From contig NC_089433.1 in the NCBI RefSeq assembly GCF_026210795.1, positions 5,394,001 to 5,458,000 on the forward strand: DNA of 64,000 bases. The letters run 5' to 3'. Positions 1,215 through 64,000 of the stretch are shown one piece after another. The notes under the pieces are model-generated. The model made no database searches and had not been told where the DNA came from. It saw only the letters and a program-made list of their open reading frames with translations. Source of the stretch: Rhizophagus irregularis (lineage: Eukaryota). How positions within the stretch are numbered: position 1 is the stretch's first letter; each line of letters starts with the position of its first letter. The position numbers and the translations under genes were made by a program.

Positions 1215-1733
1215 AAGTGAGTGTGTCATATTTTCAAGTGAATCTACTTAAATAACTGAAATTTCCCAAGATTTCCTCTGGTAATCACACGCTTCTCTGC
1301 ATAGTTATTCAAGAAAATTCCAGATTCTCCAGATTGTGTAAACAGTGGATGACGCACAGGGGTCGCACTACGCACTAATTTGAAAACAGCGATAAATAAA
1401 TTTTCTTCTTTTATTTTATAACAATGAAATTGGCTAAATTAAAAAGTGTATTTGAAAACATCATCACTTTTTGTTAAAAAACACAATATAATATTTCACA
1501 ATAATTAATTGTAACGATTAAATATTTTTTAAGAAAAAACGAAAAGTCCCAGATTATCAATTTTGAGGTGATACAAAAAATAGTAAACTATTTTTATCAT
1601 GGGATAAAGTTTTATTTGTTGGCTACAATTGGCACATGATTGAATGACACCATTAAATATGAATACAATTGCGTAATTAAACAATTGATTCAATCTGATC
1701 CCTTACAAATTTTTTTCGTTATAAACATAAAAC

Positions 1734-7914: not shown

Positions 7915-9174
7915 ATGACATCTGAAGGTGCAACTTCGGTGCAAGTTGGTAAGCAAAAAAAAAAAATTGAAATTTCTAAAAGTCTTTTCATTTTATCCTT
8001 ATTCATTTCCATTTTCGAGTCTCATTTAAGATTAATTTAACAAACAAATAAACGGTCACATGTCAATATTACATAATAACCCTAACAAAAAACCTTCTTT
8101 AAATTATACATTAGCTGTCCGAATAAAACCGATTACCGACGAAGATTTAGAAAAATTACCTACAAGATTTCAACGTCAAGTAATTACTACTCCATCTCCA
8201 CATCAAATTGTTGTTGAAGGAGAGAAAAGACAATTTTATCATTTTGATCATGTATTTCCTCCTGAAACCACTCAAGAAGAAATTTATGAAAAATCTGTTG
8301 AAAATTTAGTGGATAAATTTTTAGAAGGTATAAAAATGGTTCATTGTTTCATATTGTGTGGCGCAGCCTATTTGCATTTTAAGTTTTAGATTTATTTATT
8401 TTTTTTTTTTTCCTCCATTAGGTTACAATGTGACAATATTAGCGTACGGTCAAACATCTTCAGGAAAGACCCATACAATGGGTACAGCCGATAATTCATC
8501 TATACCATATCATAATAAAGGAATAATTCCTCGTGCTATAGCAACTTTATTTCATACAATGAATACTTCTTCATTATATATGAATCGAAAATTTTCAATA
8601 AAAGTTTCATTTATAGAAATTTATAATGAAGACTTAATTGATTTACTTGGTGAAGGTGAGGGAGAATCTAGACCTCAAGTCATGATACGTGAAGATTCAA
8701 AAGGTCATATTTATTGGAGTGGTTTACAAGAACTTCAAGTTAATAGTGTTGATGATGTTATAGCGTATGTATAAAATTATTTATTTGATTACATTTAATT
8801 ATAATTTCTAAAATCATTGTATATTTGTAGTTATTTGGCAAGAGGTTCATTAAATAGACAAGTTGGTGCTACTGATATGAATGCGAAATCTTCTAGATCA
8901 CATGCCATTTTCTCTCTTACAATGTCACAACAAAAATTAGTAAATCATAATGGTTATAATAATTATTCAAATCCTGGTTCAAGACCAACAACTCCATCTT
9001 CAAAATTAATGGGTTCAAGAGCTAATTCAAGATTAGATTCAAGATTTGATGATGAAAGTGATTGGATCACCATAACTAGTAAATTTCATTTTGTAGATTT
9101 GGCTGGTAGTGAAAGGGTAAGTTATATTGTTCAAATTAAATTTAACCTATTACATCTTTCATTTAATACATCTC

Positions 9175-9208
<34 letters not shown>

Positions 9209-12200
9209 GCTAAAACGTACTGCAGCAAGTGGAGATCGTGCAAAAGAGGGGATATCAATTAATTCAGGTTTATTAGCGTTAGGGAATGTAATTTCAGCTT
9301 TAGGAGATCCAAATAAAGCAAAACATACAACTCATATTCCTTATAGAGATTCTAAACTTACTCGTTTATTACAAGATTCTCTTGGAGGAAATGCACAAAC
9401 TTTAATGATTGCTTGTGTTTCTCCCGCAGAATTTAATCTTAACGAAACTGTCAACACTCTTAAATATGCAAATAGGGCTCGTAATATTAAAAATAGTGCT
9501 GCTATCAATCAAGAAGAAACTGGTTGGAATGACATAATACATTTACAAAATCTTGTAGTAAAGCTTCGTAGTGAAATATCAAATTTAAAAGTTGCATTAT
9601 CTAATGCAAATTCTAATAATGGAACGTTATCCCCTGGTAGAACTACACCTGTTGAAGGAATTAGTAGAATCAAATCACCAACCGCAGGTTATTATTCTTC
9701 AATACCAACGGGAAGAGTAACACCAACTCCTGGGATACCGACGGGAAGAAGCACACCCACAGCTTCTGGGATACCGACGGGAAGGAGTACACCCACAACT
9801 TCCGGTATACCAAATGGAAGGAGTACACCTACATCAGGAATTCCTGGACCATCAGGAATTCCAGGAAGAAGTACGCCTACATCAGGAATTCCTGGACCAT
9901 CTGGTATTCCAGGAAGAAGTACGCCTACATCGGGAATACCTGGAAGGAACACCCCAACAAAATCAGGAATTTCTTCAGGTATTCCAGGAAGAACTACACC
10001 AACATCAGGCGGTATACCTTCTGTAATAACACGTCGTACATCACGTCCATCACGTCCATCTTCACCACTTACAACCTTCTCACATGGAAATTATTTGGCA
10101 AATAATAGTAAAGATACGGAAGCTATGGAAGATGAATTGATGCAGCTTCGAGCATCATATGCTGAACTTTCACGAAAATATGCAAAAACTTCTGCCGAGC
10201 TTGCTATGCATCAAGATAATAATCCCGACGAATTACATAATCTTAAAGGACCTGTAATTGAAGAATATGAAAAATCAATATCATCACTTGAAAGTAATTT
10301 AGCCATGACAATTGCAGCATTAACTCATGCCGAGAATGCATTGAAAGAAATTGAAGAAAGAAATGCTATGTTGGAAAAAAACCAAGAACAAACAAAGAGT
10401 CTTAATAATAACTTACAGAAATATATTAAAGAACTTGAATCAAAACGTGATACTGAAACAAAAGTGGTGACTGCACGTGAAGATCATTCAGAAAAATTTG
10501 TTAGTGAAGCTGTGAAAGTACTTGAAGAACGATTACGCGATCGTGAGGCTGCTTATAAAGAATTAGAAGAAAAATTAAAACGTTCTGGTGTAGATCAAGA
10601 AAAACATGTACTTTTGAATAAAATCGATAGTAAAGATAAACGAATTAGTTTTCTTGATAGCAAACTTACTCAACTTGGTGATGAAGTTGATAAATTAAGA
10701 AGATTGGAAAATAAACAAAATTCAAGTACAATGAATTTTTATAATATGTCGGAAAGAGATCAATTGACCATCAAATCTCTTGAATCAAAACTTCGACAAA
10801 CTGAAACAGAACTTGATGAAGCAAAATTAAAATATCAAGAATTACAATCAAGGTTAGATAATAGTTCAGAATTCACGGCAACGCCTATTACACCCATGAC
10901 TCCTATGACACCTGCCACACCACATAATGAATACAATAATAATAATATAAATGGTTCAACAAAGCTTGGTGTACATCGAAAAGCAAAATCTTTATCAGCT
11001 GATCTCAAATCAGAAAATCATTCTGCAATTATTGAAAAACTTCAATTTGAGTTAAAATTATTCGAATCTTTTAATAAGGACAAACAACAAAGTTTAGATG
11101 CTGTTAAACGTGAATTGAACCATTTAGAAATAGATTATCAAGAAACATTACAATTGGTTAATGATCTTCAAGAAGAACTTAAAAAACGTGATGGTATATC
11201 AAATTCAGAACCAGCAAACTCATCTAATTCTCAATTACTTCAAGAAGTTGAAAAACTCAAGGAGAAAGAAAAACAACTTTTACAGAATATCGAAGTACAT
11301 GAAACCGAACATAAAAAACATGTAGAAGAAATTGAAAGGTTAGAATCAAATATTCGTGATCTTCGTAAACAAATGACCGAAGAAACTTCTGATGATAAAA
11401 ATGAAGAATTAATGATATTACGTGAATACGTGGCTAACAACAAAGATTATGAAAATATCATTAAACGACTTGAAGATGAGCTTCGAGAAGTTAAAGAATC
11501 GCATAATCAAGAGAAGAAATCAACTACATCATCAAAAGACAATAGTATTACGAATAATGATGAATCTTCGGCTGATAAACTTGAACAAAACGTTGACGAA
11601 AATGTAATAGCATTGGAAAGTACCGTTAAAAATCTTGAAAATAAACTTTCTTCTCTCAACTTGGACATTAAAAACAAAGATAACATTATTGAAAAAGAAT
11701 TGGAAAATAAAGGGTTATTACAAAAGCACCTCAAAGATAAAGAAACTGAGGTAGCTATTCTTACAAAACAATTGATGGATCTTAGGAAACAAGATGATGA
11801 TGTGCAGAGGAGAATGAAAGAGCTCCAAGCGCAATTAGGTAGCGTCAAGGAAATCAATAAGTCATTAGAAAGTGATTTGGATAATATTAAGAATGAATTG
11901 AAAGTTGTAAAAGAGAATGAAGCTCAAGCACTTGAACAATTACAAGTACTAGACGCTGAAGAGTTGAAACTTCAACAAGAATTGGCGCAATTACGCAATA
12001 CAGAAATAACGCAACGAGAACGAATTGCTGTATTAGAAGCTCAATTATCAGAGAAAGGTGCACAGATTGATAATGAACTTATAAATGTAAAATCAGAATT
12101 AGCAATTTCAAAAGAATCAGAAATTACCAACAAAGAAACAATTGCTCAGTTAACAAAAAATATTTCAGAAATTGATAATGAGCTTACAAATGTACAATCA

Positions 12201-14246
12201 GAATTAGCAATTTCGAAAGAATCAGAAGTCGCAAACAAAAAAATGATTGCTGAACTTGAATCCGAATTAAGTAAATCTGAATCTATAATAACCTCTTTAC
12301 AATCTAATATTGAGATATCGAACTCCAATGAAAATGAAATAAATGAAACACTTGTTAAACTACGAAAGGAATTATCGGATACTAAATCAGAAATGGAATC
12401 ACAAAATGAATTATTAACAGAACTTGGAAATCAATTGACAACAACCGAAAAAGAACGTGAACAATATTCCGAACGTATTAATGAATTGTCAAGAATTATA
12501 GAAGAAAGAGAAAATCAATTGACAACAACTGAAAATGAACTTAATCAGTATTCTGAACGTATCAATGAACTATCAAGAATAATTGAAGCAAGAGAAAATC
12601 AATTGACAACAACCGAAAAAGAACGTGAACAATATTCCGAACGTATTAATGAACTATCAAGAATGATTGAAGAACGTGAAAATCAATTGACAACAACCGA
12701 AAAAGAACGTGATCAGTATTCCGAACGTATTAATGAACTATCAAGAATGATTGAAGAACGTGAAAATCAATTGACAACAACCGAAAAAGAACGTGATCAA
12801 TATTCTGAACGTGTTAACGATCAATCAAGAATGATGGATCAACAAAAGGAAGAAGTAGAAGCTTTTGAATTAACAATAACGAACTTGGAGAATGAACTCA
12901 AAGATACGAAGACTGCATCCCAAACTTATCAGGATAAAATGAAATCATTGGGAGAAAAACTTTCTGATTTAGAATCTCAACTTGATGAAGCAAAAGCTTC
13001 AAATGAAGAACATGTTCGAATGATCAATAACCTTGATTCTACATTAAAAGAATCTAACATTCATCTCAGTGAGAAAGAGGAATTGATATCTACCAAAGAC
13101 TCCCATATTAAAGAATTGGAAGCAACAATTAAAAAGATTAATGAGAAATTAGCTGATGCTGAATTGTCTAGAACTTCTGAATCTGAACATGTAAAATCAC
13201 TTCGAGACAAAATTGCGGAAATTGAAGCTAAATTAGAACAAAGCCCATCACCTGAAGATCTTGAATCAGCGCAACAACTTGCAGATAAACAAACTGAGCT
13301 CGTTAAAGAATTGGAAAGGAAGATTGATGAAATTAATAAAACTAATTCATCAGACATTGCTAATATGAATGAAAATATTGACATTTTAACCAAGGAATTA
13401 AATGAGATGAAATCCGCCGAAGAAGCGCAAAATTCTTTGATTCATGAATTAGAGTCTGAACTAAAAGAAAAAGAAGACAAGACGCTTGAATTAAAAGAAA
13501 TGTTAGATAAGGCCAACGCCCAACTTATCGAAAAGAATGAACATTTAAATGTCAAAGTTAATCTTGAACGACAAGTACAAAATTTACAAGAACAACTTAC
13601 TTCTATGGCCAAGGAATTAACGGACATTACTACAAAATATGAAGACGGCGAAGCTTTATCAAATGAATACAAAGTACAGATATCGAAATTAGAAAAAGCT
13701 CTTGAAGAAGCCAAAAAATTATCAAGTGATAAACAAAAAACTGATGAAACATTAGAAACTTCTGAATCCGAATTCAAGATTCCACTGAAGGATAATACAG
13801 CACAAGATAATCTTATTAAATCACTTCATGAAAAGATTATTGAACTAGAGAGCGCAGGAAAATCAAATTCCGATATAACTAAATATGAAATTGAAATTAA
13901 AGAATTAAACGAAAAAGTTTTCAAATTAGAGGAAATGGTTGCAGAAAAATCTAAATTAATAGAAAGTTTAAAGGAAAGTGGGACAGAAATAAAAGAATCA
14001 AGACAAAAATTAGAAGTATTACAAAAGGAAAAGAACGATCTTGTAAATGAAATTGAAACATTGAAAGTTAAAGCTGACCGATATGAACAATATAGAATTG
14101 AAGTAGAAGAAGAGAAAAAAGAAATTAATAGTATTTTAACAAAAGAAAGAGATGCCAGACATAAAGCTGAAGTTCAATTAACCAATCTTGAAAATCATAT
14201 TGAAGAACTTCAAGGTGCAAAGAGGAGTAAATTTATGTGTTTTTAA
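7915..14246 (+). CDS. Kinesin-4 family (KIF4/KIF21/KIF27-like) motor with a long coiled-coil tail; exons 7915-7948, 8115-8327, 8422-8764, 8831-9116, 9210-14246
   Basis: Motifs VQVAVRIKP, P-loop [13 protein letters not shown], switch I NAKSSRSH, switch [34 protein letters not shown] and [16 protein letters not shown] introns restore the frame. A heptad-rich tail of well over 1000 aa follows. Confidence 0.95.
9700..10020 (+). repeat. Coding tandem repeat SGIP(T/G)GRSTPT within kinesin
   Basis: About 8 imperfect repeats in the translated ORF. Confidence 0.9.
12428..12835 (+). repeat. Coding 84-bp (28-aa) tandem repeat within the kinesin coiled coil
   Basis: About 5 copies of [28 protein letters not shown]. 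Confidence 0.92.
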
Positions 14247-38416: not shown

Positions 38417-39193
38417 TTAATTATAAAATAATTATAGTAAAATAATATTATTATAAAGAATTTTTTAATAATTTAAAATTAATATATAGTATTATTTAAT
38501 AGTTAAATATAGTATTAAAGAAAAATTTTTACTTTTTATTAGTAAAATAAAAATTTAAAAATTTTTTTTTTTTAAGCAGTTATCATATTATTATTTGGAT
38601 AAAAAATGAAAAAAAATGAAAAATTAAAGTATAAAAAAAATGATAACAAAATTTTAAAAAAAAATAAATAGTAAAGTAATTGTTAAACATTTTTATACTT
38701 ATATAAAAAAAAAATTATATATATTTTCATTGAAAATAAAAGTATAATTAATTTAATAAGAAATTTTTAAATTATAAAAATAAATATTTCTTAATAATTT
38801 AAAATTAATATAGCCAAACCTTTATATTATACTTCCCAGCGAAATTAATTTAATTACGTCATTATACCTGACGTAATAAGCCGTAATAATTACGGTTTTA
38901 AATTTTAAAATGCCGATATGCCGTAATTAAATTAACCTGTCAAATTAATTACGGCAGTAAAATTTAAATTATATTAAAATAGGAAATAGATCAACTAATA
39001 AACACATGATTTAACATGAGTATATTAAATGAACGTAGTATATAATCATGTGTTATATTTCTTAAATTTTTTTTAAAATATTTCTTTGTCTTAAAAAATG
39101 CCAAATTTAAAATATTTTCTAACGCGTGTACCAATTAAACATTCTGATATAAAATAATACATTTTTTTATATATATTTTATACACTAATTATA

Positions 39194-41667
39194 ATGTCTA
39201 CTCAAGAAACAAATGGTGGAAGTTCAAGTGGCGTATTATTAAACACAAATAAAGAAAAAGGAAAACCAGGAAGAAAAAGAGGACCTGTTTGGATTCATTT
39301 TAATGATATTGGCACTAAAAAAGAAGGTCATATTGGTTGTAAATGCATGTATTGTGGCTGGACTCAAAACCGAGGAGAACCAGCCCAAATGCAAGCACAT
39401 TTAGCTTTATCCTGTTCAAAAGTTCCTTCTACAATTAAAATAGAATATTTACTTCTTATTAAACAAAATGCTGAAGAGCGAGTTACTAACTCTACTTCAA
39501 CTGTCTCAAAAAAAAGATGTGTTAATTTATCTCAAACAAGAATAGATAAATTTTATGAATCTGACCAGATTGATAGTACCAAACAAGTATTATGCGATAA
39601 AGCTGTTGCAAAATTCTTTGTTTGTTGTGGTGTGGCATTTCATTTAGTTTCTCATCCTTTTTTTATTGATATGGTTAAAAGTTTATGTAATGGATATGAG
39701 CCATCGTGTTCTACTACTTTATCCAATACACTTATGAACAACGAACTTACTAAAATAACTGTTGATCAGCAACTTACGTTAGATAAAGAATCAGATTTAA
39801 CATTAGGTAAAAAAATAAATTTTATTTTTAGATTTTTTAATTATTTAATAAATTTTGAATTTTTTAGGATTTGATGGCTGGACGAGCCCACGAGGTCAAT
39901 CATTATACGTTTTTATACTTATTACATGTGAACGAAAGGAAATTATACATAGTTTAAAAAATCTATCATCAGAATCTCATACAGCAAAATTTTTAGCTGA
40001 AAAAATTAATGAAGTAATTACAAATATTGGGCCTGAAAAATTTTCTGCAGTTGTTTCTGATCATGCTGCTGCTTGTGCATCTGCTAAACGAATCATTGCT
40101 GATACACATAAACATATTATTCCAATTAGATGTATTGCGCATCACATTAATCTCATTACAACTGATATTTGTAAAACTTCATTTGCCAAAGAGGTTATTG
40201 CGAAGTGTACAAAGTTAGTAAAATTTTTTAAAACATCACATCAAGCTGGTAAAAAGCTTAAAATGAGTATAATTGATGATTCAGTTAAAGGTGGAAATCT
40301 CAAAACTTATGTCAAAACTAGATGGACAACAGCTTGGGATTGTACGAATTCTATTTTACGTCTTGAAAATCAGTTAAAAAATGTAAGTTTATTAATTATT
40401 AATTATAAAATGAATTAAAACGTGAAATTTATTTTATTTTATTTATTTATTAGTTATTAAATGAATGCCCAGAAATATTGAATAATGAAATTAAAAGTTT
40501 ATTGCGAAGTAGATCATTTTTTAATGATGTTGATGCCGTTAATACTTTATTAGGCCCAGTCAAATCAGCAGTAAAGGCTCTTGAATTCAAATCAACTATG
40601 CTTGCTGATTGTTTTGTTGAATTAATCAAGTTATCACAAAGGATTAATTTCCTTCCACCAATATCAGATCAAAATTTTAAATCTACCTGTATTGAATTAT
40701 TTAATAAAAGATGGAAACAATTCGATTTTGATCTTTATATTTTAAGTTATATGCTTCATCCATACTACCGAGGTAAATTGTGAATTTTTTTTTGAATTAT
40801 TTATTTTTACACTAATCTTAATTAAATTATTATATTTATACTTTAGGTAAAGGTTTACATCCAATGGTCTTTCGTGATGTTTGTCTTAATGCAATGAAAT
40901 TGCTAAAAAATATGGGTGGTGGTGAAAATTCTTGTAGCGAATTAGTTGCTCAAATTCGCGCATTTACACAATATGAAAAACCTTATGATTTAGAGTATGT
41001 ATTAGGAATAGATAATGTTTTTTTATGGTGGCGATTATGCAATCCAGTACGTCCTGAAGAACATTATATTCAACAACTTGCTATGAAGATTTTATCAATT
41101 ACTCCACATAATGTAGGATGTGAACGTGTTTTCTCCATAATTGGTTGGATGGCTAATAAAAGGAGAACACGGTAAGTTAATATTTAATATTTAATATTAC
41201 TATATTAAAAAAAGTATATTATGCCTTTAATTTAGTTTTAATGTATTTAATTTAGATTAAATATTGAAAAACTTGAATCAATGGCGAAATTACATACGTA
41301 CTATATAACAAATGCAAAGTCTGAGCTCAAATTTGCATATAACACACTTTCCGAAGATCAATTTCAAAATGAAATTCAAGAAACATTATCTGATCCTTCT
41401 TTTTTTGATGATGATGATGATAATAGTGATTATGATGATGAAGATGAGGATTATGATCAAAATGAGGATGAGGGTGATGATACTGAGGCAGCTAATAATA
41501 ATAATTTGGAAATTTCACGATGGGTTAATATTATGGATAAAGAATTGCAAGAACTACTTCAAACAGAAGTTAAAGTAGTAATTGATATTTCTCCTCCACC
41601 ACCACTGGTAGATCACGGTTCTCAAGAATTTAATATGGAAGAAGTGTTAGATAGAATTCTCACTTAA
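39194..41667 (+). CDS. hAT transposase (BED zinc finger, RNase H-like DDE, C-terminal dimerisation domain); 5 exons
   Basis: Motifs VWIHF..CKCMYC..HLALSC (BED), FDGWT, VSDHAA, RCIAHHINL, KTRWTT and CERVFS. GT-AG introns at ~39807-39867, 40384-40453, 40773-40846 and 41172-41255. No in-exon stops seen. Confidence 0.92.
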
Positions 41668-42004
41668 AAACATAAAAATACATTGATAAATAAATTTTAA
41701 TATTTGTTTGGTATAATTACCCATAAATTTTTATAATGCTTAATTACGTCCAATATAAAATTGACCCGTAAACTATTTAAAATTATTTATTTATTGAAAT
41801 TAATCGCTAAACGCTAACACATTTTATACATTTTATTAAAAAAGAAAAAAATTTTTTTACGTCGAAAATATGATTCCGATGATTGGGTTGATCAGATGAC
41901 AGATCACAGATCCATAAATTCGATCTCATCGATCATTTTTTTTTTATTTTAATCTTTTTCTTTAAAAAAAACAATTTTAAAACCGATTTGTTTTAAAAAA
42001 AAAT

Positions 42005-42560
42005 GATATTTCGGTTTTCTTAAACCGATTTTTTTTTATTTTTAAAAATTTAAAATCATTTATTTATTTTTTATTTATTAATTATTTTTTTAAAAACAAT
42101 ATTTCGGTTTTTTAAACCGATTTCTTTTTATTTTTTTAATTTTTTTTTTTTAAAAAAAATAATATTTCGGTTTTCTTAAACCGATTTTTTTTCTTTTTTA
42201 AAATCATCATTTATTTATTTTTTATTTATTAATTATTTTTTTAAAAAACAATATTTCGGTTTTTTTAAACCGATTTTTTTTTATTTTTTTAATTTTTTTT
42301 TAAAAAAAACGATATTTCGGTTTTCTTAAACCAATTTTTTTTATTTTTTTTTATTTTTTTTCTTTAAAAAAATAGATATTTCGGACCAATTTAAAAAAAC
42401 TGATTTTTTTCTTTTTTAAAATTTAAAATTATTTATTTATTTTTTATTTATCAATTATTTTTAAAAAAAACAATATTTCGGTTTTCTTAAACCGATTTTT
42501 TTTCATTTTTTAAAATATATTTTTTAAAAAAAAACATTTCGGTTTCTTAACCGATTTTTT
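42005..42560 (+). repeat. Array of ~8 TCGGTTT-loop-AAACCGA hairpins in the hAT 3' region
   Basis: ATTTCGGTTTTCTTAAACCGATTTT recurs every ~60-100 bp, separated by T/A tracts. Confidence 0.85.
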
Positions 42561-42653
42561 TTTCTTTTGCTTTTTAATTATTTTTTTTTATTACAATTAT
42601 TTACTCTGAAGTCAGAATTGTAACTTTTTTAAGATCAAGAATACGGATCTTGG

Positions 42654-44213: not shown

Positions 44214-45423
44214 TATAACCGCAGGTGATATCACCTAACCAAAATCACATGATCAATATAATATGATATTATTTTTAATAGTTAATCAAAATTAGACTAT
44301 TTATACTAATTCCCACATTCCCTTCTTTTTTGCTCTTCTTTTCTTTTACTATATTATATATACAATGGAGTATAAAAACCCTAAATAAAAATAATCCTAT
44401 GGTTGAAAGTGATAAAGATGATTCTATATTAGATAAGTGACGAAGGTGAATATCATGATACTAAATTACTAATGTAGAAATTACACTATGTCCTGGTATG
44501 CAATTTCAGTTGTAGGAAGAATTAGAAACCCACCTTAATATTTACGCTCTTCAAGAAGGTTTTTCTTACAAAAAAAATAAGGCTTGAATATTACATGAGT
44601 CTAGTGGTACAGCCATCCCGATTTTTTGAGGAGATTAATAATATTTGCAAAAGAATTTTTTAACATTACATATACTTTCAACAGTTCAAAACCAAATGAA
44701 ACAAATCTTTTTTTTTGATGCTTCAAGAATATATAGAACAGGTATGGAGTAATTGATTATTTAATGACATGGTATTAAGATTAGGGTGTGGGATTAGGGT
44801 TAAGATTAGGGTGTGAGATTTAGTTAGGGTTAGGATTAGGGTGTGGAATTAGGGTTAGGGTGTGGATTAGGGTTAGGATTAGGACTTGGAATTAGGGTTA
44901 GGCTTAGCATGTTTATTGTTTCTAACTTTATTTATTTCTTTTTTTTTAATTTTTGATTGATGGTTCAACTTGCAAAGATGGATTCCGGGAATATGATTAT
45001 AAAATTAAACTAATTCTACTCAAAAATTTGATTGAAAATGTGCTATTAGATTCTATTGTAGAAATTTGGCAAATTAAGCCTGAATTATTACCAACACATT
45101 CACAGTTCATCATTTATTTATACCAGCGTGAACGTCCGCCAAAACTGTATCAAAGTGAAGGAGAACCACAAAAAATAATTAAAGAAAACAAAGAAAATCA
45201 AAGTGTTAATATAATGATAGCACTCTGAAAAAATTACAAAACTGTAGAGGTTTGTCATAATTTACGAAATTGCAAGGTTCTTAGCGATAAAAATTGATGT
45301 TATATTATTTGTAGATAATTAATTTATTTTAGTAGATGTTATAAATAAATTTTATTGTATATGCCATATCAATAATAATTCAATCATGTGACCATACTGG
45401 AGGTGATATCACCTGCGGTTATA
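44214..45423 (+). mobile_element. Internally deleted TIR element with FAR1/MULE transposase remnants
   Basis: Perfect 23-bp inverted ends TATAACCGCAGGTGATATCACCT. Remnants PGMQF..EELETHLNIYALQEGFSYKK (FAR1-like), IVEIWQIK, RERPPK and HNLRNC. Confidence 0.75.
44775..44907 (+). repeat. Interstitial telomere-like TTAGGG variant repeat
   Basis: Roughly ten TTAGGG/TTAGGA units interspersed with TGTGGA. Confidence 0.85.
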
Positions 45424-47964: not shown

Positions 47965-50104
47965 AGTTGACTACATGGTGAGAAGCTTTTCTAGGAGCGC
48001 TTATTTTATGGAAAAAATATCGAGTGATGATCAATTATAACGGTGGCTTAGCTATTTTATTTAACTAGCCCCCCAAAAAAGCACTGGTCGGCCGGCATTA
48101 TGCGGAATTATGTACTGTCACGTGAGCAGTGCGTGGTGACAAATAATGCACCCCTTTTTTGTGTGCCAGGTTCATAGCTTAGCAAGCCACGCACCACAAA
48201 ACTTATTTTGGCCAGAATTAAAATGAATTAAAATTAAAGTATATAGTCCACGCGGTACCACAAAACTTATTTTGGCCAGAATTAAAGGGAATTAAAATTA
48301 AAGTGTATATATCGTATCAATAATGCAAAATTTTAAGAATATAATTAAACGAATTATTAAAAATACTAAACTTTTAAGAAATTAAATGAATAATAAGTAT
48401 CTTTTTTAATAAATTTAAAGTGTATATATATATAATAAATATGGACAAAGTAAAAATATTGCAAATTTATTTAATAAAGCACAAGTTAAAATTAAAAATA
48501 TAATTTAATTCAACTGATTTCTTAGAATATTTTTGCTTAAATTGTGTTCTTTTTTACCAGTTTTCTTTTTTTTCTGACTTGGAATTATTTATGAATCTAA
48601 ATTTTCTTTTCTGTCAGCTTGCTTATTAGTGCCACCTGATTTATTTTTTTACACCGCTTAACAGACTCTATCTGAACACGAATTATTGCACCACTCTTAA
48701 TGCGTGTTAGATCTACATTGTGGTTAATATCATAAAGGAAGGAACACAAGTGAGGAATTGATTTTGATTTGATGTATGGTATCGTTCAGCAAATTTGTCT
48801 AATGCAGTACGAAACTGTGGACCACAATTTTCATAATCTACTTTAATTTCTTCCAAGAAATCGCCCAAAGTAGATGTGTTGATTTCATTCTCTTTTATTT
48901 TATTATTTTCATTTAATTCTCTCAGAAATTAGTTGTCAGTTATAGAATTCAATTGATAGCTGCAGTTCAGAATTGTCAATTGTTTATCATTTTCGTTATG
49001 CGATTCTATCTGCAGAGTTTGAACTTGTGAGAAAGGACCTGCATGTAGTGAAGCATAAAAAGAACCATTTTTTGCAATGTAGCTTAAAATAATAATAAAT
49101 TATGTGAGTGATAATTATAATAAATATCAAATTTAATGGAATCTGTTTGCCAAGTGCGATATAGAAATAGATCATATGATCATTAAGAGTTAATGATGGT
49201 AGAAAATTAAAATTTGAAATGTGAAATTTTACAGAAACAGCTTGCACGGTGTGCCTATCATCCTAACATGACAGCTACAAGTTCCAATAGCACTGTTAAA
49301 CAACATAAAAACAACCCATTTTTTTTGTACTTGGAACTAAATATTCATTTTTGAAAGTTGTTGGTTAAATGGAATTACTATTCACTTTTTCCCAATCTGG
49401 ACAAAAGAACCTTTTTGTGATCGTATGATCCAGGTGTTTATATGCAATTCTGAGCAGTTTAAATTTATAAAAATGGTCTATGTTATCTGTAACAAAATGA
49501 AAGACTTGAACTGGATTAAAAGCTTGAGTTCTAGAAAAAATGATATTCTTAAGTATGCTAAAGCTACATTCAATATAATTATTTGTATTGTTTCCACGTA
49601 TCAGTAGCATCAAACGAAAAGATAAAGCCCATAATTGGCGCTGTTTCCATAAAAGATCAAAGTGTTTTTGTAATTGAGAATATAAGTGAAAAAAATTATG
49701 TTTAAAGTCTTGATAATGGTTATCCATCTCTGGCTCTGTTAATACGTAAAGAATTTTTTTCATCATCTTTATAATAGGTATTTGATCATTTTTATTTATA
49801 TGATGTTTTGAATCGTACAACCATCTTCAAAATACCTGGAGTATATGGAAAGTACATAAAAGACGTATTCCCGTGGCCAACAGAGCTTTAGAGCGTTTCT
49901 TTCTGCGCTTGAATCATCTGTAAAAAATACTATAAGACCAACTTGAGAACTACATTTATAGAAGGCATATGAAGGTAAAATCATCTTTAGCAAATTTAGC
50001 TAATCGTAAAAAAGAACAATAATTAGAAATTTGTAATTACCGAGAAAAAAATCATAGGAAAATTACCGCTTTTTCCAATATTATTTCTGATTTATCTGAT
50101 GTAA

Positions 50105-53100
50105 CACTGGTCAAAATCAAAACTTTCGACCGTTAAGAGCTTTCGGTATAATTTTTGCTGATTGGTCATATGATTCATCACATTTTTTGACCAATGGCAA
50201 AAATCAGTAAAATCAATCACAAATCAACTAATACTGATTGTTAAACGAAAACTCATTCAGTCTTTTGGTGAAAAATCAACTTATACCGATTGTTATACAA
50301 AAAATTGCTCTTTTAAGATCATTCAGTAAAATTATACTGATTGGTCATATAAATCAACACAATTTTGCCAAATTTGCCAAACGGTAAAAATCTGGCAATA
50401 ATTCGGCAAATCAGTTGATAAATGACTGAAAAAATCAGATGATCCAGATCGATATTTTACAGGTCTTTTTAAAATAAACTTTTTTAAACTTTTTAAACTT
50501 TTCGCCTCTCTCTTTCATTCGTAAATGTACACATTAAATTCGGTAACTTTTTATTAAATCAAAAAAGTTTCGAAACTTTCTTTAAAAAAACATTTTTTAC
50601 ATTAAAAAACGTTTTTTTTTATACTTTTAGTGAAGAAAATCGGTTCCAGCGTGGATACCGATATTACAGGTAAAGTTTTGAAAAATTTTGAAACTTTCTT
50701 TTAAAAAAAAAATGTTTTTAGCTAAAAACGTTTCTTTTTTATATTTTTTGCAGAAAATCGGTTCCGATGTGGATACCGTTTTCCTAAGTAAAGTTTCGAA
50801 AAAAATTTTTAAAACTTTCTTTAATAAAACATTTTAATAAAACGTTTTTTTATTTTTGTATAGGAAATCGGCTCCAGCGTGGACGCCGATATTCCAGTTA
50901 AGTTTCAAAACTAAATGGTTTAAAACTTCTTTAAAACGTTTTTTAATAAAAAAAACATTTTTTTTTTATTTTTTTTATATAGGAATTCAGCTCCAGCGTG
51001 GATGCCAATATTCCAGTTAAGTTTCGAAACTAAAGTTTCAAAACTTTAATAAAACGTTTTTTAATAAAAAAAATGTTTTTTTTTTATTTTTTTTATATAG
51101 GAATTAAGCTCCAATGTAGACGCTGATATTCCAGTTAAGTTTTGAAACTAAAGTTTCGAAATTTTAATAAAACGTTTTTTAATAAAAAACGTTTTTTTTT
51201 ATTAATTTTTGTAGAAAATCGGTTCTGGCGTGGATACCGATATTCCAGGTAAGTTTCAAAACAAATGTTTTGAAACTTCTTTAAAAACATTTTTTTTATA
51301 TTAAAAAACATTATTTTTTTATTTTATTGTATAGGAATTTGGCTCCAGCGTGGACGCCGATATTTCAGATAAGTTTCAAACCATTTTTGAAACTTCTTTA
51401 AAAAAAAAACGTTTTTTAACGTTTTTTTTTATACTTAATTGTAAAGCTATCAGTTCCAGTGTGGATACTGAACCCCAAAGATAAGTTTTGAAAAATTTTG
51501 AAACTATAATAATAAACGTTAAAAATTAACATTTTTTTTTTATTTTTTGTAGGGATATCAGTTCCGGTGTGGATACCAAAATCCCAAAGGTAAGTTTCGA
51601 AAAAAAATTTTAAAACTCTTTTTAATAAAACGTTTTTAATAAAACATTTTTTTTTATGTTTGTATAGGAAATCGGCTCCTACTTGAATACCAAATTCCAA
51701 AGGTAAGTTTCAAAACAAAGTTTTGAAACTTTAAAACATTTTTTAATATTAAAAACGTTTTTTTTTTACTTTTGTATAGGAATTCGGCTTCAGCGTGGAT
51801 GCCGATATTCCAGTTAAGTTTCATTTTCAAAACTTCTTTGAAAAAAACGTTTTTTAACGTTTTTTTTTTAATATTATTGTAGAGTTACCGTAAAGTTTCA
51901 AATTTTTAAAACTTTACGAAACTTAATAAAAAAAACGTTTAAAGTAACGTTTTTTTATTATTTTTTATTATTTTTTTTTGTAGAGAATTGGCTCTGATTT
52001 GGATACCAATTCTACAAGTAAAGTTTCGAAGTTTTTTTTTCGAAACTTAATAAAAAACGTTTATTTTAAACGTTTTTTTTATTTTTTTGTAGGAAATCGG
52101 CTTCAATATGGACGCTAAAATCTCTTCGGTCAGGTTTCAGGATGAGTTCAACATGGAATTTCGAAGGTAGAACTTCAAAATATTTCATTAATTTATCTAA
52201 TAAACATTACTAACATTCCTTTGTATTTAGAAAATTTTTTTTTTTTTATTTGAACGAAACGTTTGCTAACGTTTTCGTTCTTTTTTTTTGTAGATTCAAG
52301 ACGCCCTCAAAGTATAATAGGGGTTTAGGGCATGGAATGGTTGATGGTAAGTTTTGAAGTTGGTTTAATTTTGAAACTTTAAAAGAAATGATTTACTAAT
52401 CATTTCTTTCTTCTTTTTGTAGGCTTTCACTTCAGGCTGATGGATCGGGTAAGTTTCGAACTATTTTGAAACTTTTCAAAATTTTTTTTTTATAAAAGAA
52501 TCGGTTTGCTAACCGTTTCTTCTTTTTTTTTGTAGATTTCCCCCTTCGACTTTTTATTGGATGGGTAAGTTTTTCGAAACTTCATTTTTTATTATTATTA
52601 AAGAAACGAACTAACCGTTTCTTTTTTTTTGTAGGTTTCCATTAACGAATTGGAGGTAAGTTTCGAGTATCGAAACTTTAACTTTTTTTATCGAAGAAAC
52701 ATTAAACTAATTGTTTCTTCTTTTTTTTTGTAGGTTTCCCACCCTTCGGACTTTATTGGATGGACAGGTAAGTTTCGAATTTTTTCAAAACTTTATTTTT
52801 TTTATTGAAGAAACGTTAAACTAATTGTTTCTTCTTTTTTTTTGTAGATTTTCTTCTTCGGACTTTATTGGATGGGTGGATAAGTTTCGAATTTTTCGAA
52901 ACTTTATTTTTAATTATTATTAAAGAAACGAACTAACCGTTTCTTTACTTTTTTTTTGTAGGTTTCCCCTTCAGATTTTATTAGATCGGGTAAGTTTCTT
53001 TTGAAACTTTAACTTTTTTTATTTAAAAAATAGGTTACTAACCATTTTCTCTTTTTTTTTGTAGGTTTTCTACGGATTTTTATCAGGTTAGGTGAGGATG

Positions 53101-54943
53101 ATGGGTGGATAATGGATGGTGGATGGTGTATATAGATGATAGATAGCTATATATTAATTTAATATGTAATTTTTAATACATATGGGCCGATCCTTGGAAT
53201 CTAATTTTTTACACAAAAATAATTTTATTAAAGCAAATATAAATTATCATTTATATAAGAATAATAAATTTATACTAGGTAATGCAAAAAAAACTAATTA
53301 ATTATATAATTTTTAATTTTTTTTTAATATATGATATCATTAAAATTTAAAAGATCAAATATAACTCTCATGACAAAATCATTGATAATTCTTCGTAGAA
53401 ATAAGCTATACAAATAAATTTACATTCATTTGAAAGAGAAAATCGAGATCTATCTAATGAATCTAAAATCAAGTGAATTGAATCACTAGTTGTTCAGTAA
53501 TCACGTTCAGTATATTTATTGAATTTTATCTAAATTTGATCATTAATTACTTCACATGTAGTGATTCAATTTGAATGATCTTTGCTCCCTAAGGTGATGC
53601 CAACTTTTATCTTTAAAATAAATTTAAAATAATTCGTTTAATATATGTAGAATCATCAATTATATTATTAATATAAAATTTTATAAGTTTGATAAAATCT
53701 GATATAAAAAAATTTATTAAATACCTGTAGATGCAAGCTACACGAATGAAATTATATTCATTTGAAAGAGAAAATTGAGGTCTATCTAATAAGCCTAAAA
53801 TCGAATGAATTGAATCACTGGATTGTGAATAATTACGTCTAATATATTTATTTTTAATTTTTAAATTTGATTTGACTTTGATCGTTAATTACGCCTCATC
53901 CAGTGATCCAATTTTCCTGATCTTTGATTCTTACGATAGAGCAAATTCTCAGCTTTCAAATGAATGTAAAATGATGACGTTAGCATATCTCCAGGAATAA
54001 TAATGCACGATTTTGTCACCTGCATAAAGTCCGATCTGAAAATTTTATTTCTTACCAAAAAATGCTTTCATAAGAGAATCCCAAATTCTTTTACTTTATT
54101 TAAAAGATTTTATTTGCCATTTAAGGATTTTAGTAGAATAAATCTAATAAAATAATTTTAAAAGATAAAAAACAAATATATAATTAGTTATTTTGAAAAA
54201 AAAAGAATATCTTATTATTCATTTTACAACTATTTTACATCATAATTATTTTTTATTTGCATGTATTTTTTACAAAGAAAAAACAATAAATTAAAGCTAA
54301 AAATTATGAAAAAATATGTCTTATCTATGTATATAAAATATTAAGTTTTTTCTTTTACTTACCACTTAAAAATAACTGCTATATTTGCTTATAAACTTTT
54401 TTGTCATATTTAATAAAAGTGAATAGAAAAATGATGGAAAAGTGATGGGCAGTGATGGGAAAAAAGAAGTGGTTATTACCGTTATTTTTGAATATTGATT
54501 AAAAAAATTTTTTTATTTTTTATTAAATCTGAGTTACGTAAATATGTAACACATATTTAATTTAGATTTGTGTAATGTTAATCTTACTAAAATATTAAAT
54601 TTTTATAAAAATCTTAATTTAGACTAATTCCAAAAATCGGCACATATGAAAATGAATTAATAAAATTTAATTAATAAATTATTATAAAATTAAATCAGTA
54701 ATCAGTTAAATGTACAAAAATCGGTAATAAATTATTAGGTTTATTAACAATCGTCAATTTGATTTTACCGATTTGTTGCCAATTTTTACTGATCAATTTG
54801 TTGACAAATGGCAGGCGTTATGGTGCAAATCATCTATATAATTAGTTGCCGATTTTTTGGTACTGATCGGCTAAGGTAAGACTGAATTTCGTCCAACATT
54901 CAGCAATTTAAAATTTTGCCAAAATGAACTATTCTGACCAGTG
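50105..54943. mobile_element. Non-autonomous CACTA/CMC-type element inserted in the MULE transposase
   Basis: TIR CACTGGTCA(A/G)AAT. 3-bp TSD TAA at 50102-50104 and 54944-54946. Subterminal (C/T)GATT repeats. Removing the element rejoins the transposase motif LITSD. Confidence 0.9.
50543..53064 (+). ncRNA. Putative multi-intron structured ncRNA: ~22 tandem micro-exon/intron modules
   Basis: Period ~100-120 bp: polyT-(G/A)TAG | 21-37-nt exon | GTAAGTTTCG. CTAAC/CTAAT branch sites occur in the distal 8-9 introns. Exons fold into covarying hairpins. No long ORF. Confidence 0.65.
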
Positions 54944-57449
54944 TAATTAACATCCAAGTGGCAGCACACCTGCTGCATAACTTGTATATAAAAGTGTAAT
55001 TGAGGTTCAAACGATGCAGATGCATCAACATAACAAATTTCTCCAACTTGCAGAATTTTTTCATGAATGCGGCACATTAAACTGGATACAATGCATAAGA
55101 TGAACGCTTTTTCAGTTTATATATCATATTCCTGTATAATCGCTTTACCATTACCCAAATTGTTATAATGATCAATTACTTCTACTAAGTGTTCAAACAT
55201 TTTCTCACCATTACAACTGCCAAGCATATTATTATGGTATTTATGGAAAAGTCTAACAATATAACCATAGTCTGACTTGATAGCTCGATCTGCAAGCATT
55301 TCAAGCAACTCCTGATTACTTTCTGCAGTAGTGTGAAACCTATCTTCATAGAAATATATTGTCAAAGCAGACGAATGCCCATCTTCAAATAACTCTAAAA
55401 ACCTTTCATGTACCTCTTCCTTAACATGCTAAAAACTTAATGATTCTGCCAAATTTATTACATGATTGTGCGTAAATCTAATATTGATTTCCAGCAGATT
55501 GCTATGCGACTCAATATGCCAATTTTCTAGCTGAATTTTAATACTTGCATTGCAGTGAACATTTCTTATTCAAGTTGACTGCTGAAACTTTATTTCACGA
55601 TTACCTTATTTTTTTTTAACATCATTTCCATGTATACAATGTCGTTTTAAAAGCACCTTTTTTCCTTTTACTCTGTATCCCTTTGTTTGAGACATCGTGA
55701 TTTTAGAATGACTGATATTAATAAATGCTTTTAGTTCAAATTGTGGGATCGAAAAATTCTCAAAAGTTTGATAAGATAGTAGTTAATTAAACTTTTTAAT
55801 TAAGTATGAGTAACCTGATGAAAGAACTAATTTCAAAAGATCGGGTAATGAACTCTAAACTAAAATCTGTAAGAATTAAGAAATAACAATTATGACAAGT
55901 TTAGCAACAATGGTGACTTTGACAAAATAAAATATTTTAACAAATCGGAATAGTAAAATTTTTGCAATATATTAATATATTAATATTTAATGAAAATAAT
56001 TTACAATAGTACAAATTTGATAAATTAAAATATAAAATATAGTTATATAATACTAATAAAACTTTGTAATTTGTACTTTAACCTCGTCTATACTATTATC
56101 GTTCTCTATAATTTTAGACAGCAAAAAAAAAACAAAACTATTTGGTTTTATTTAACTAAATAAAACGTTAAATAAAAATATTTATTATAGTCTATGTGGT
56201 TTTATATTTCGCTTCAAAAAATGGTAAATAAGATGGGAAGAAAAAGAGATGGTTAACACGACACAAATAAAATCAATAAAATCTGTGTACAATGCGAAAT
56301 TAGGTCACGTAAATAAGTAAATTATTAGAAGAGTGGTGGCGCGTGACGTATGGTGCAGCTGTGCTACACATTTTTGCCATGAACCTGGCACACAAAAAAG
56401 GGATGCAAAATATATTATTTATATTTTATTTAATTTTTTATTAACTATTAATTCTAAAAATGCGATTTTACTATCATTAGATTCGTCTTGTTGAGGCGAT
56501 TCCAATGAGCTATATTTCATCCTTTTCTGATCATTGGATCAAAAGTTAGCAAACTGCCTGATTGGTGATAGTATTTGGCGAAAATGCCAATCAGTTACCA
56601 ATCGGTCACCAATCAGCTAACAGATTGGTGACTGATTGATACCTGATTTTTCACTTTTTGACCTGTGTTTATTCAGTAGATATAGTTGGTTGAAAAATAT
56701 TTTCACAGATTTCTGACTGCATATTATTTCAGTAATTTCTTGCTGGATCATCCACAATTGTATTTCAGCTTCCAGTACTATAATATATAATAGTTCAGCC
56801 TAGTAAAGTTAAATTTAATTAGAAAAGTGTAAGGAAAAGCATAATGCTATATTTAATAAGATTGGTATATATTAGTATTACCTGTCGTAAATAGTTGTAA
56901 GTTTAAAAATTAAGTAATTATAATGGTTGTAAATTAGAATTATTATTTTTTAGTTAATCACAATAATATTTTACATTTTTCATTTAACTATTATTTATTA
57001 TCAATAATTCTTGTAAATATTATTGAAATTTACCAATTATATCTTGATATACTTATCCTAAATGTTTATATTTCTATAAATATAAATATGTTTCTTTATC
57101 TTTTAAGTTTTAAATATATAAGATATTTTCATTTAGAATTATAAATATGTGGTTTTCTTTGATAATTTATTCTTAATCTTTAGTATAATTTTTATTTTAA
57201 ATTTTGTTATAATTTTCATTTTTAATTTTTAATTTTATAGTAATTTTATTTTTAATTTTTAGTATAATTTTTATCTTGATTTTTAATATAATTTTAATTT
57301 AATTTTTAATTTAATAGTAATTTTATTTTTGATTTTTGGTAGATTTTACTATAACTTGCATTTTTGATTTTTAGTGATAATTTTCATTATTAATTTTTAA
57401 TTTTAATTTTAATGTAATTTTTATTTTGAATAATATTTATAATGTTTAA

Positions 57450-58833: not shown

Positions 58834-59475
58834 GTTTTATCCTTTTCCGATTACTGGCTGACGAGTTATTCAACAAAATGTTAAACATCGGCATTATAAT
58901 ATTTCTTGATTTACGTTTACTGCACCATTTAACATTTTGCTAGATTTCTCGGTACCTAGTGATTGTAAAAAGACGATTTATAGCTCGTTGGAATCGTCTC
59001 ATCGAGACGAATCGAATGGTGGTAAGCTCATCTCTCTGTGATCGATATTGACGGAGTTATTACTTAAAAACCATTTAATATTTTTTAATTTCGGAAATTG
59101 ATCTAGTGATTGGATTTCGATGTATATTATACCATTAGATTCGTCTCATCAAGACGAATCAAATGGTAGTACGATCGTCTTTCTAGGATCAATATTGGCA
59201 GAGTTATTACACAAAAACCATTAATATTTTTTTTAATTTCGGAAATTAATTTAGTGATTGGATTTCGACATATTTTATACCACTAGAACCGTCTCATCAA
59301 GACGAATCGAATGGCGGTAAGATCATCTCTCTACGATTAATATTGGCGAAGTTACGATACAATAAAGTTTTAAGTATAATTCTGGCTAAAATTATGTTAA
59401 TTTTTGGCCAGAATTATGATATACAAATATAAGAAATTTTTTATATAGTCACATCTCTTTATAATCACCAAATAT

Positions 59476-61649: not shown

Positions 61650-64000
61650 CAGTCTGTCCTTTTTATAGCGAATTTTGATATAACGAATAACACGATATAG
61701 CGGATCTTTAGCGTGGTACAGATTTTGACATATGAAAAAAACCTTGTCAAACCGAACTTTACTAATTAAATTTCGTACAACGTTTAACGAAATAAAGTGT
61801 GTGAACATGCTTATATAAAATGATCCTTTTTATAACGGATTTTTTTTATAACAGATTTTTTCTGATTTTTTTATGAATATACCGAAGAATTATTTTTTAT
61901 AACGAATTTTTTGAATTTTTATGAATATACCGAAGAATTTTTGCGAAATGAATCTTACTATAAAGGACTATTTATCATGAAATATTTTCTCAATGTAAGA
62001 ACTACATCATAAAATTAATTTATAATGGATACTTTCATACTTCATATTTTATTTTACACTTCATTGTTACTCTGGATATTTTTTAAAAATGCCAAAAGCC
62101 AAATCTGTAAAACCTGGTAATAAACAACTTAATGGAATCCCCAGAAAACGTAAATCTCTTATAGCAGCACAAAAGAAAGAAATTTGTTTGAAAAAAATTT
62201 CTACTCCCTCCTTAAAACAAAAAGAACTAGCCAACGAATATGAGGTTAGTGAAGGAATGATCAGTGATATTTTAAAGGAAAAAGACCGTTGGCTTGTTGT
62301 AGATCTTGATTCACATCAAGCTGGATTACGACGCGAAAAAAGATTCCTTTTCCTATCATTGAAGAGGCTTTAACTCTTTGGGTAGAAAGTGCACTTCAAG
62401 CCAGTCTTATCATCAATGATGATATTCTTTCAAGCAAGGCCTGCCTGAGCTTGCTTTTTTGTGTGGAGAAGATAAATTCAAAGGGTCAAATGGTTGGGTT
62501 GACAATTTCAAAAAGCGGCACAATCTTAGGCAATACAACATGCATGGAGAAGCAGCAAGTGCACCTGTTCAAGAACTTGATACAATGCGTGAAGAAATTC
62601 GTAGAGTTTTAAAGAATTATGCCCTGAAGACATCTTTAATTGTGATGAGACAGGTCTTTTTTGGAAAATGCGACCTAGTCGTACAATTTCTAATGCCCCA
62701 ATTTCTGGAACAAAACAGTCAAAAGATCGTGTAACTGTTTTGCTTACTTGCAATGCAACTGGGAGTGAAAAATTATGTCCATTATTCATACACAAATATG
62801 AAAACCCTCGAGCCCTCAAAAACATCAATAAGAAAACTCTTCCAGTAGATTATCACTGGAATCCAAAAAGTTGGATGCAAGTTTCGATCTGGGCCAATAT
62901 CTTAAAAAACTTGATGCTCGAATGAGAACACAAGGTCGAAATATTCTTCTTTTAGTCGACAATGCTCCAACTCACGCCCTATTTGAAACCACACGCCTTA
63001 CAAATATCACGCTTGAATTTCTTCCTCCAAACACTACTGCACACCTCCAACCATGTGATCAAGGTATTATAAATAGCTTCAAGCGTAAGCTTCAATTAAT
63101 GAACATTCAATTCAGAATGTAGTAATGTTTTATACTTGAAATTTTAAAAATTCGTTGTTTATTTTAGGCACAATATCGAAAGCTATATTTACACAATCGA
63201 GTCAAATCATATGATAATTTTAATGAATATGGCACTGAACCCGTTGAAATTAATATTAAAAAATGCATCAAATATGTTGCACGTGTATGGGATAGTGTTA
63301 CAAAAACTACCATTGAAAACTGTTGGCTAAAAGCGGATATCCTGCCTAAAGATGATGATGGAGACGAAGTTAGAGATGATGATTGTGAGCATGATGATCA
63401 TGTCCATGATGACCATGACTCCAATGACCATGCCGATACTCAAATTTATCTTACACATATTAAGGAATTGGAAGAGATTCAAATGTTGATTGATAAACTT
63501 GATTTTGAAAAACCTTTTACTGCTGAAGAATTTATTCAATGTGATAGGGAAGAAATTACAACGGAAATGATATCCAATGAAGAAATTTTGAAAACCGTTC
63601 TTCCCAATAATAATCGAAGAGGAAGTAGAGGAGATTCCTTTACCTAGTATCTTCTATGTGTATTGAATTTTATGATAAGGTGATTTTATATTTGGAGCAA
63701 CAGGAAGACGGTTTTGATACAAAAAAAGAAGAGTTGAAATTTGTTAAAAAGCTAAAAAAAGAAGCTTTAAAACAACGGTTTATTTCTGCAAAACAGACTA
63801 ATCTTGATAGTTATATTAATATAATTGAGTAAATTTATTCGTGTAATTAAGAGGCTCAATTTTTGTTACATTTTCATAAATAATTCAGTATAATAAAATG
63901 TTGTTAAAAATTTAAAAATCGCGTAATTTATTATTTATAGTTATCTCTTAAAATAAATAATAATAAATTTTTAATGAATATTCGGTATAATATAATGAAA
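61650..64000 (+). mobile_element. pogo/Tigger-like DNA transposon (right end beyond the window)
   Basis: Left end TA-CAGTCTGTCCTTTTTATAGCGAA with TATAACG(A/G)A subterminal motifs, followed by a transposase. Confidence 0.8.
62089..63832 (+). pseudogene. pogo/CENP-B-like transposase (HTH plus DDE_1), frameshifted
   Basis: Motifs FKGSNGWVDNFKKRH, HGEAAS, FNCDETGLFWK, LLVDNAPTH and QPCDQGII are spread over several frames. One intron at ~63085-63167. Confidence 0.88.

Follow-up and report, generated by a model that had tools for sequence, protein, structure and literature searches.

Fungal EnSpm transposons have CAC..GTG ends, make 3-bp target-site duplications (TSDs) and encode transposases that resemble Plavaka (PMC12730594). 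Plavaka and CMC elements are abundant in Rhizophagus irregularis (PMC12730594, PMC11075540), a fungus in which unclassified repeats make up ~24% of the genome (10.1101/2021.03.30.436303). Introns favour expression in Cryptococcus, where the splicing state of a transcript bears on its silencing (PMC5851062), and an intronic barrier to nuclear RNA interference (RNAi) has been described in Caenorhabditis elegans (PMC5554785). Here we describe a 64,000-nt stretch of the R. irregularis genome (GCF_026210795.1, NC_089433.1, positions 5,394,001 to 5,458,000; hereafter the window, with positions counted from its first letter) in which a DNA transposon of 4,839 bp carries a tandem array of intron-like units separated by micro-exons. 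The array is non-coding, recurs family-wide and is under constraint.

Results

An array of intron-like units inside a transposon

The array, curated by hand, comprised 22 acceptors at 50630-53064, mostly poly-T-GTAG or poly-T-ATAG, and 23 donor positions. GT donor, branch motif, pyrimidine tract and YAG followed one another on one strand, as they do in U2 introns. Units of acceptor, micro-exon and donor numbered 17 on the + strand and 0 on the - strand, compared with a mean of 0.62 and a maximum of 4 in 500 dinucleotide-matched simulations; the remaining 61.4 kb of the window held 4 on + and 1 on -. All but one of the 21 internal introns were 69-94 nt long, the exception being 165 nt. In part A (family A exons, 50631-52128) the 13 exons measured 34-39 nt, 9 of them exactly 34 nt, besides a single 7-nt remnant, and GT was missing from 6 of 15 donors. 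CTAAC or CTAAT stood ahead of the acceptor in 8 of 8 of introns 14-21 and in 0 of 13 of introns 1-13, whose branch motifs were weak (TTAAY in 9/13). All 7 part B introns had the motif, with six GTAAGT donors and one ATAAGT donor. Across the array 16/23 donors started with GT, 9/23 being GTAAGT. Within the window, every match to GTAAGTTTC (7/7) and to AAAACGTTTT (10/10) fell inside the array.

The exons keep no reading frame. Joined, the window exons (705 nt) contained stop codons in all three frames, and the lengths of 64 exons from the window and its relatives (see below) were spread evenly over the three remainders on division by 3 (25/22/17, p = 0.47). A sequence-only reading of the window had described about 22 intron and micro-exon modules, all signals on one strand, with two exon families (13 family A exons and 8 of 21-53 nt in family B by our count), CTAAC/CTAAT branch points in the second and no frame in the exon lengths; it had named splicing into a conserved protein open reading frame (ORF) as an outcome that would speak against a non-coding array. 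The counts above bear out this description, and the frameless exons, with stops in every frame, leave the array non-coding. The same reading had mentioned a few donors mutated to ATAAG. Such donors exist, but the decay is wider, with 7/23 lacking GT (3 ATAAGT and 4 TTAAGT, the latter with a weak GTTAAG one base upstream).

The part A exons mostly fold to small hairpins, in which GGT/ACC, GGC/GCC or GGC/GCT pairing was found in 7/9 scored exons. We rejected the exons as copies of subterminal motifs, since 6-mer sharing was 0.31 for family A against 0.27-0.29 for controls and lay below controls for family B. In the 143 intact introns described below, box motifs gave a C box in 0/143, a D box in 4/143 and a terminal ACA in 0/143, which rejects a small nucleolar RNA host; a mirtron cluster was rejected as well, the intron ends pairing into one hairpin in 1/143. 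An Rfam search returned no match at the curated score, and one bacterial small RNA match below the cut-off was taken as chance.

Splice signals are conserved across a family of arrays

The unit, which the sequence-only reading had proposed to seek across the genome and in related Glomeromycotina, recurred with the same layout at 36 metagenome loci (L numbers below), forming 22 clusters at 90% identity, in one pattern scan of contigs. The scan pattern required two donors and one acceptor, so that those positions were ascertained and the other units were not. The longest matches of the 36 loci to the window array were 64-83% alike. At all 24 of the 36 loci that were read whole or in part, the order of donor, branch, poly-T and AG was kept on one strand, with the same intron, local palindromes and differing exons. 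Intron grammar persists across the 22 clusters, whereas exon families cannot be aligned between or within arrays. The intact units extracted from the window and its relatives (n = 143) had a median length of 81 nt and ended in TAG (138) or CAG (5). Unit gain, loss and chimaeras were common across arrays. Viral contigs gave 0 matches, and the sole match in prokaryote genomes (L037), lying among bacterial genes, was judged to be chance and excluded from all counts.

To measure conservation, we aligned intact units to homologues that had been picked by similarity alone. The main set drew on 25 sequence sets, mostly one for each cluster with the window added, and held 102 homologous units with a mean identity of 80%. 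In this set the acceptor AG was changed in 3/100 units, compared with 80/211 (38%) for other AG, and the donor GT in 10/96, compared with 90/209 (43%) for other non-CpG GT. With the control rate halved, p was 7e-5 for AG and 0.024 for GT, values that overstate independence because the units share ancestry. In a larger set of 164 partly redundant units the branch A was changed in 6/152 and the +5 G in 3/162, while the letters flanking AG were changed in 14-17%. Changes at -3 in these units were T/C in 11/11 and at +3 A/G in 13/14, a pattern weakened by the fact that these are the commonest mutations anyway. The splice dinucleotides and the branch point therefore outlast comparable bases, a point that the sequence-only reading had singled out for checking. 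The better preservation of acceptors over donors, together with the occurrence of acceptor-only runs, hints that binding at the 3' splice site matters most.

Several relatives showed further variation. Acceptor-only runs of up to ~30 units (a 25-35-nt GC-richer spacer plus poly-T-GTAG, with no donors) lay beside complete units in L008, L012 and L017, as read, and in L004 and L035, by count. GCAAGT replaced GTAAGT donors in several units of L005, L001 and L033. Two related arrays in opposite orientation shared one contig at L033:700-5900 and in L020; these are probably nested or adjacent insertions, and long double-stranded RNA is possible if both are transcribed. A tRNA-like stretch was noticed within the L009 array (oriented 1100-1200), by eye only.

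The element and its relatives

The element begins with CACTGGTCA and ends with TGACCAGTG, flanked on either side by TAA. As the sequence-only reading had said of its 4.8-kb element, there is no transposase: no ORF of at least 100 amino acids (aa) lies inside 50105-54943. It is inserted in a decayed minus-strand transposase-like relic whose reading resumes across the element (49365-50101 and 54947-55428); a Pfam search gave no match to the relic, which we take to be MULE-like from its motifs. The CAC..GTG terminal inverted repeats (TIRs) and the 3-bp TSD fit fungal EnSpm (EnSpm/CACTA-like, CMCT), and the earlier label of a CACTA-type element is better given as CAC..GTG EnSpm/Plavaka-like. The PlavakaA and PlavakaB groups of PMC12730594, with TGT..ACA or CATCA..TGATG termini, were rejected for the CACTG..CAGTG ends found here.

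The left 119 bp of the element were 93% identical to L023, which has a comparable CT-rich leader after the same left end, and the right 113 bp were 77% identical to L008. Ends of the CAC(A/T)GGT type, a short motif that also occurs by chance, were found upstream of the array at 6 loci (L002/L013, L007, L023, L030, L034) and downstream at at least 5 (L008, L009, L026, L029, L033). L033 carried a Plavaka transposase (PF18759, E 5e-32) upstream of the array on the same strand, and its array ended in GACCAGTG, a single terminus being seen. The 80 bp between this transposase and the array were 91% identical to a stretch just inside the L030 terminus, as expected if short copies arose through internal deletion. 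In L028 a Tet_JBP gene (PF12851; L028:708-2189, -) directly followed the array on the array's strand. Its protein had 107 relatives, those named coming from Rhizophagus, Diversispora, Gigaspora, Racocetra, Entrophospora and Paraglomus; in the accessible text of PMC12730594, TET-bearing transposons are given only for rusts, mushrooms and Pezizomycetes. A gene facing the array in L002/L013 had only hypothetical relatives, from Rhizophagus and Glomus, and matched no Pfam family at the cut-off.

RNA from the array and from the opposite strand

Raw-read runs X21-X24 (at most 3 samples from 2 studies, unstranded, ~1/4 of each run) were mapped to 49900-55200, and X21, X22, X24 and X2 were mapped to the array only. 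X2 is probably DNA, having a DNA-like size (148 million letters of contigs) and covering every bin. Depth per direction over the array was mostly below 20 and at most 36. The sequence-only reading had looked to junction reads from array copies; no + strand GT..AG junction on the array was present among the 15 joints listed of 69 (X21-X24) or among the 15 listed of 71 in the array-only mapping. The weakest joints listed had ~18 reads, or ~14 units of contig depth, and any + strand junction would have fewer than ~14-18 reads if joints were ranked by total support. Between 80 and 89% of the raw reads on the array ran on into unlike sequence, only 49-59 per run were 99% alike, and the fraction of element words present in any listed run was at most 0.67; the sampled strains may thus lack the exact array. 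Most reads on the array stem from diverged copies; together with the unstranded libraries and the few samples, this limits the junction negative.

The sequence-only reading had overlooked an expressed, spliced transcript in the right third of the element. This abundant, polyadenylated minus-strand RNA (54480 to ~53290) has four exons and two paralogous long hairpins, runs toward the array and ends ~200 bp from it (Table 1). Depth at 53600-54500 reached ~800 per direction, the strong joints, read as CT..AC and thus GT..AG on the minus strand, had 1,100-4,000 reads, and exon 4 was 73% identical to exon 3. The spliced RNA contained no ATG ORF over 27 codons. Most reads covering 53649 had a 9-base insertion, which places the origin of the RNA in a near-identical copy or allele, not provably in the window copy. 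With a long hairpin inside a spliced non-coding transcript, it is a possible hairpin-RNA or miRNA-like precursor. Its stem words were absent from the R. irregularis entries listed in the accessible supplements of PMC6399891 and PMC9757828. The opposite strands of the hairpins folded almost as well (-51.1/-49.9 and -46.7/-41.2), so that the hairpins may represent a foldback repeat of the DNA seen in transcribed form. One hairpin unit, 70% identical and with splice-site motifs at the same places, was present at L010:521-840, upstream of an array in L010 and on that array's strand.

Table 1. Parts of the element, by position in the window.
Feature	Positions	Strand	Basis or support
Left TSD, TAA	50102..50104	.	
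Non-autonomous CACTG..CAGTG DNA transposon, EnSpm/Plavaka-like ends, 4,839 bp	50105..54943	.	TIR, TSD, no ORF >=100 aa
Left TIR, CACTGGTCA	50105..50113	+	
Predicted pyrimidine-rich leader or first exon, ahead of first donor GTAACT at 50543	50500..50542	+	sequence; L023 similar
Part A of array, period ~118 bp: 14 intron-like units with 13 hairpin-forming exons and 7-nt remnant	50543..52128	+	
Linker intron, 165 nt: GTCAGG donor, CTAAC branch motif, GTAG	52129..52293	+	
Part B of array: 7 introns and 8 exons (21-53 nt)	52294..53086	+	
Predicted terminal region of array unit, GGAT-rich then AT-rich	53087..53260	+	sequence; inference
Exon 4 of minus-strand RNA, paralogous hairpin, 3' end approximate	53290..53610	-	z -3.75; read ends 53290 and 53367
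Intron 3, 114 nt, often retained	53611..53724	-	1,139 junction reads, internal depth 139-604
Exon 3, long imperfect hairpin, sometimes skipped	53725..53952	-	-51.1 kcal/mol, z -4.1; 88 skipping reads
Intron 2, 103 nt	53953..54055	-	1,332 junction reads
Exon 2	54056..54143	-	
Intron 1, GT..AG, 219 nt	54144..54362	-	4,015 junction reads over 4 runs
Exon 1 of expressed non-coding transcript	54363..54481	-	read ends cluster 54474-54481
Right TIR	54935..54943	-	
Right TSD, TAA	54944..54946	.	

Elsewhere in the window we noted a Crinkler N-terminal domain followed by a kinase-like ORF at 1731-4063 (+); a kinesin-like gene, labelled by eye, at 8036-14246 (+), with a 1,678-codon exon containing Pro/Gly-rich and 84-bp coiled-coil repeats; a hAT-type transposase gene in pieces at 39158-41667 (+), with a DUF659 match and a weak hAT dimerisation match; and a fragmented DDE_1 (Tc1/pogo-like) transposase at 62026-63647 (+). 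Repeats comprised a 61/150/222-bp palindromic AT-rich tandem array (41986-42590), a TTAGGG-like tract (44775-44907) and a 148-bp tandem repeat (58991-59354). In keeping with its origin, one protein of the window matched proteins named Rhizophagus irregularis at 100% identity.

Discussion

We favour, at a probability of roughly 0.4, the reading that the intron array is a licensing or anti-silencing module. In arbuscular mycorrhizal fungi, CAC..GTG (EnSpm/Plavaka-like) transposons would carry the array as non-coding cargo. It would have been built through tandem duplication of an intron-plus-micro-exon module and is likely transcribed inward from the element's left end, on the + strand. Repeated loading of spliceosomes would give the element's RNA and chromatin a gene-like mark, and this mark would blunt host silencing. 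As near-identical copies show, the right end drives the separate, abundant, spliced RNA with two hairpins, which runs toward the array. The splice grammar persists and the exon sequence does not, which makes the loading of spliceosomes likelier to be useful than the product. The window copy itself is probably a decaying or currently silent member. The proposal of the sequence-only reading, a non-coding RNA with repeated spliceosome engagement, stands insofar as the array is non-coding, belongs to a 36-locus family and has constrained splice dinucleotides; the engagement itself finds no + strand junction in its support among the joints listed.

Several observations weigh against the licensing reading. 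Besides the absence of + strand junctions among the joints listed, 151 reads ran unspliced across 52994, inside the intact GTAAGT donor of intron 21, and at position 52880 a G (an intact GT) was present in 29/47 reads, which were nevertheless unspliced. Unspliced array reads could reflect retained introns, antisense read-through or DNA. Seven of the 23 window donors lack GT, and some relatives (L008, L012, L017) have long acceptor-only runs. The -3/+3 pattern follows the commonest mutations, and given the kinship of the units the contrasts are not independent trials and the p-values are overstated. The palindrome arms, changed in 10/104, 17/103 and 8/58, were about as conserved as the donor (10-17%), and mismatches in the branch stem were equally G-U and A-C (22 vs 29; 14 vs 18 in non-redundant introns). 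With no excess of G-U over A-C, no sign of sense-strand RNA selection on the branch stem was found; a role as DNA, or an origin through template switching, could account for the stems.

We consider it unlikely that the array is a slow-splicing substrate, in which stems over donor and branch would stall spliceosomes and retained RNA, or pairing with convergent minus-strand read-through, would feed a SCANR-like RNAi that limits the family's own activity. Such a stalled-spliceosome mechanism is known from Cryptococcus (PMC5851062), and the introns are structured: an inverted motif was present at the donor in 106/143 and at the branch site in 69/143, donor and branch regions folded better than base shuffles (mean z -2.0 and -2.7, 93 non-redundant introns), at least 3 of 6 donor bases were paired in 79/93, and variant stems retained pairing with altered letters (e.g. 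L019, L033). The unspliced reads over intact donors and the end of the convergent hairpin RNA close to the array would also fit. Yet the donors, including non-GT ones, match the U1 consensus at 7-9 of 9 positions in 17/23, their predicted accessibility (mean 0.27) overlaps that of confirmed and ordinary introns (0.05-0.68), the sense strand shows no G-U bias, and the unspliced reads, coming from unstranded libraries, may be antisense or drawn by internal A-runs. A DNA-level role would explain both the conserved palindrome arms and the equal, strand-symmetric mismatches. CpG-centred inverted motifs (AAGTTTCG..CGAAACTT, GAAACGTT..AACGTTTC) would then bind an element-encoded protein and keep the element unmethylated, as with VANC and VANDAL, the splice-like look being left from an ancestral intron. 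Although CpG observed/expected was 1.91 in the array and 1.09 in the remainder of the window, VANC targets are fast-evolving tandem repeats (PMC5735166), and a Tet_JBP gene follows the L028 array on its strand, we attach a low probability to this explanation too: the most conserved letters, the acceptor AG, lie outside the palindromes, the one-strand order of splice signals holds at all 24 loci read, and the TET/JBP gene stands beside one array only and may belong to another element.

A functionless satellite, grown from one ancestral intron with its flanking sequence through slippage and unequal exchange, seems to us quite improbable. It would account for the frequent gain, loss and chimaerism of units, for the donors without GT in the window copy and for the lack of array junction reads among the joints listed, but not for the 4-12-fold lower rate of change at splice-site AG and GT than at AG and GT elsewhere, or for intron grammar that outlives recognisable exon families. 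Least credible, and largely refuted, is a micro-exon protein gene with a repetitive peptide. Family A would read EIGSSVDADIP per exon if the GTTAAG donors were used, exons in L026 measure 30, 45 and 30 nt, and one frame stays open through a 5-exon chain of L001 (as in 3% of shuffles); against this stand the unbiased exon lengths, the stops that close every frame in the longer chains of L016, L019, L033 and the window, and the fact that the seemingly synonymous changes, GGY with RCC, also preserve pairing in the exon hairpin. Frameless lengths and stops do not fit the frame-preserving, protein-coding exons of micro-exon genes, the Schistosoma group in which SmPoMuc is reportedly placed.

To return to the licensing reading, a broader version of it, which we hold tentatively and regard as doubtful, is that a transposon superfamily of Glomeromycotina has evolved an array of 10-25 working introns, able to expand, through which the host spliceosome serves as a licensing or silencing switch. 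This would be an RNA-level counter-defence by intron multiplication, beside a protein counter-defence (TET/JBP) and opposite a hairpin RNA. Should the introns prove to be spliced, they were multiplied by a selfish element that has no protein for them to interrupt, and they offer a natural test of splicing as a mark of self, so far studied by reporters in Cryptococcus and worms. The family provides graded material, with intact, decayed and acceptor-only arrays, with and without the convergent hairpin RNA. The arrays also name a recognisable part of the unclassified repeats of R. irregularis, and they carry a warning that gene callers will invent multi-exon genes on them.

Full-text searches found no description of such intron arrays; transposon libraries, the supplements of two preprints and most subscription papers lie outside these searches and may hold the repeats under other names. 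The element shares CAC..GTG termini and a 3-bp TSD with fungal EnSpm/Plavaka elements of the CMCT clade, some of which carry TET/JBP; in the accessible text of PMC12730594, whose main text leaves Rhizophagus unmentioned, no intron-array cargo is reported, and PlavakaA and PlavakaB have other termini. Transposon-derived long non-coding RNAs (lncRNAs) of Blumeria hordei are likewise non-coding, polyadenylated and spliced RNAs inside fungal transposons, a description that the minus-strand transcript fits, but they average 2.3 exons, with <1.9% having more than five, and the accessible account gives no tandem intron module or selected family-wide splice array (PMC10648671). Like the array, VANC/VANDAL targets lie in non-coding stretches of a DNA transposon as tandem repeats that evolve fast; they are short DNA motifs, whereas the array consists of complete introns and its palindromes would be putative binding sites (PMC5735166). 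Schistosoma micro-exon genes also string together many very short exons, but these are protein-coding, preserve the frame and come with signal peptides, whereas the array is non-coding and lies inside a transposon (PMC4015677). Glomhopper does not apply, its introns sitting in a coding gene (PMC13465315). Introner-like elements of fungi are, as here, many-copy families of related, structured spliceosomal introns; they are single insertions in unrelated genes, whereas in the array intron and exon duplicate in tandem inside a mobile element (PMC4457414). In Cryptococcus, through SCANR, and at the intronic barrier of C. elegans, the splicing state of transposon transcripts decides between expression and silencing, as may be the case here. 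Those are host mechanisms acting on ordinary introns (PMC5851062, PMC5554785), whereas in R. irregularis the element itself appears to multiply introns.

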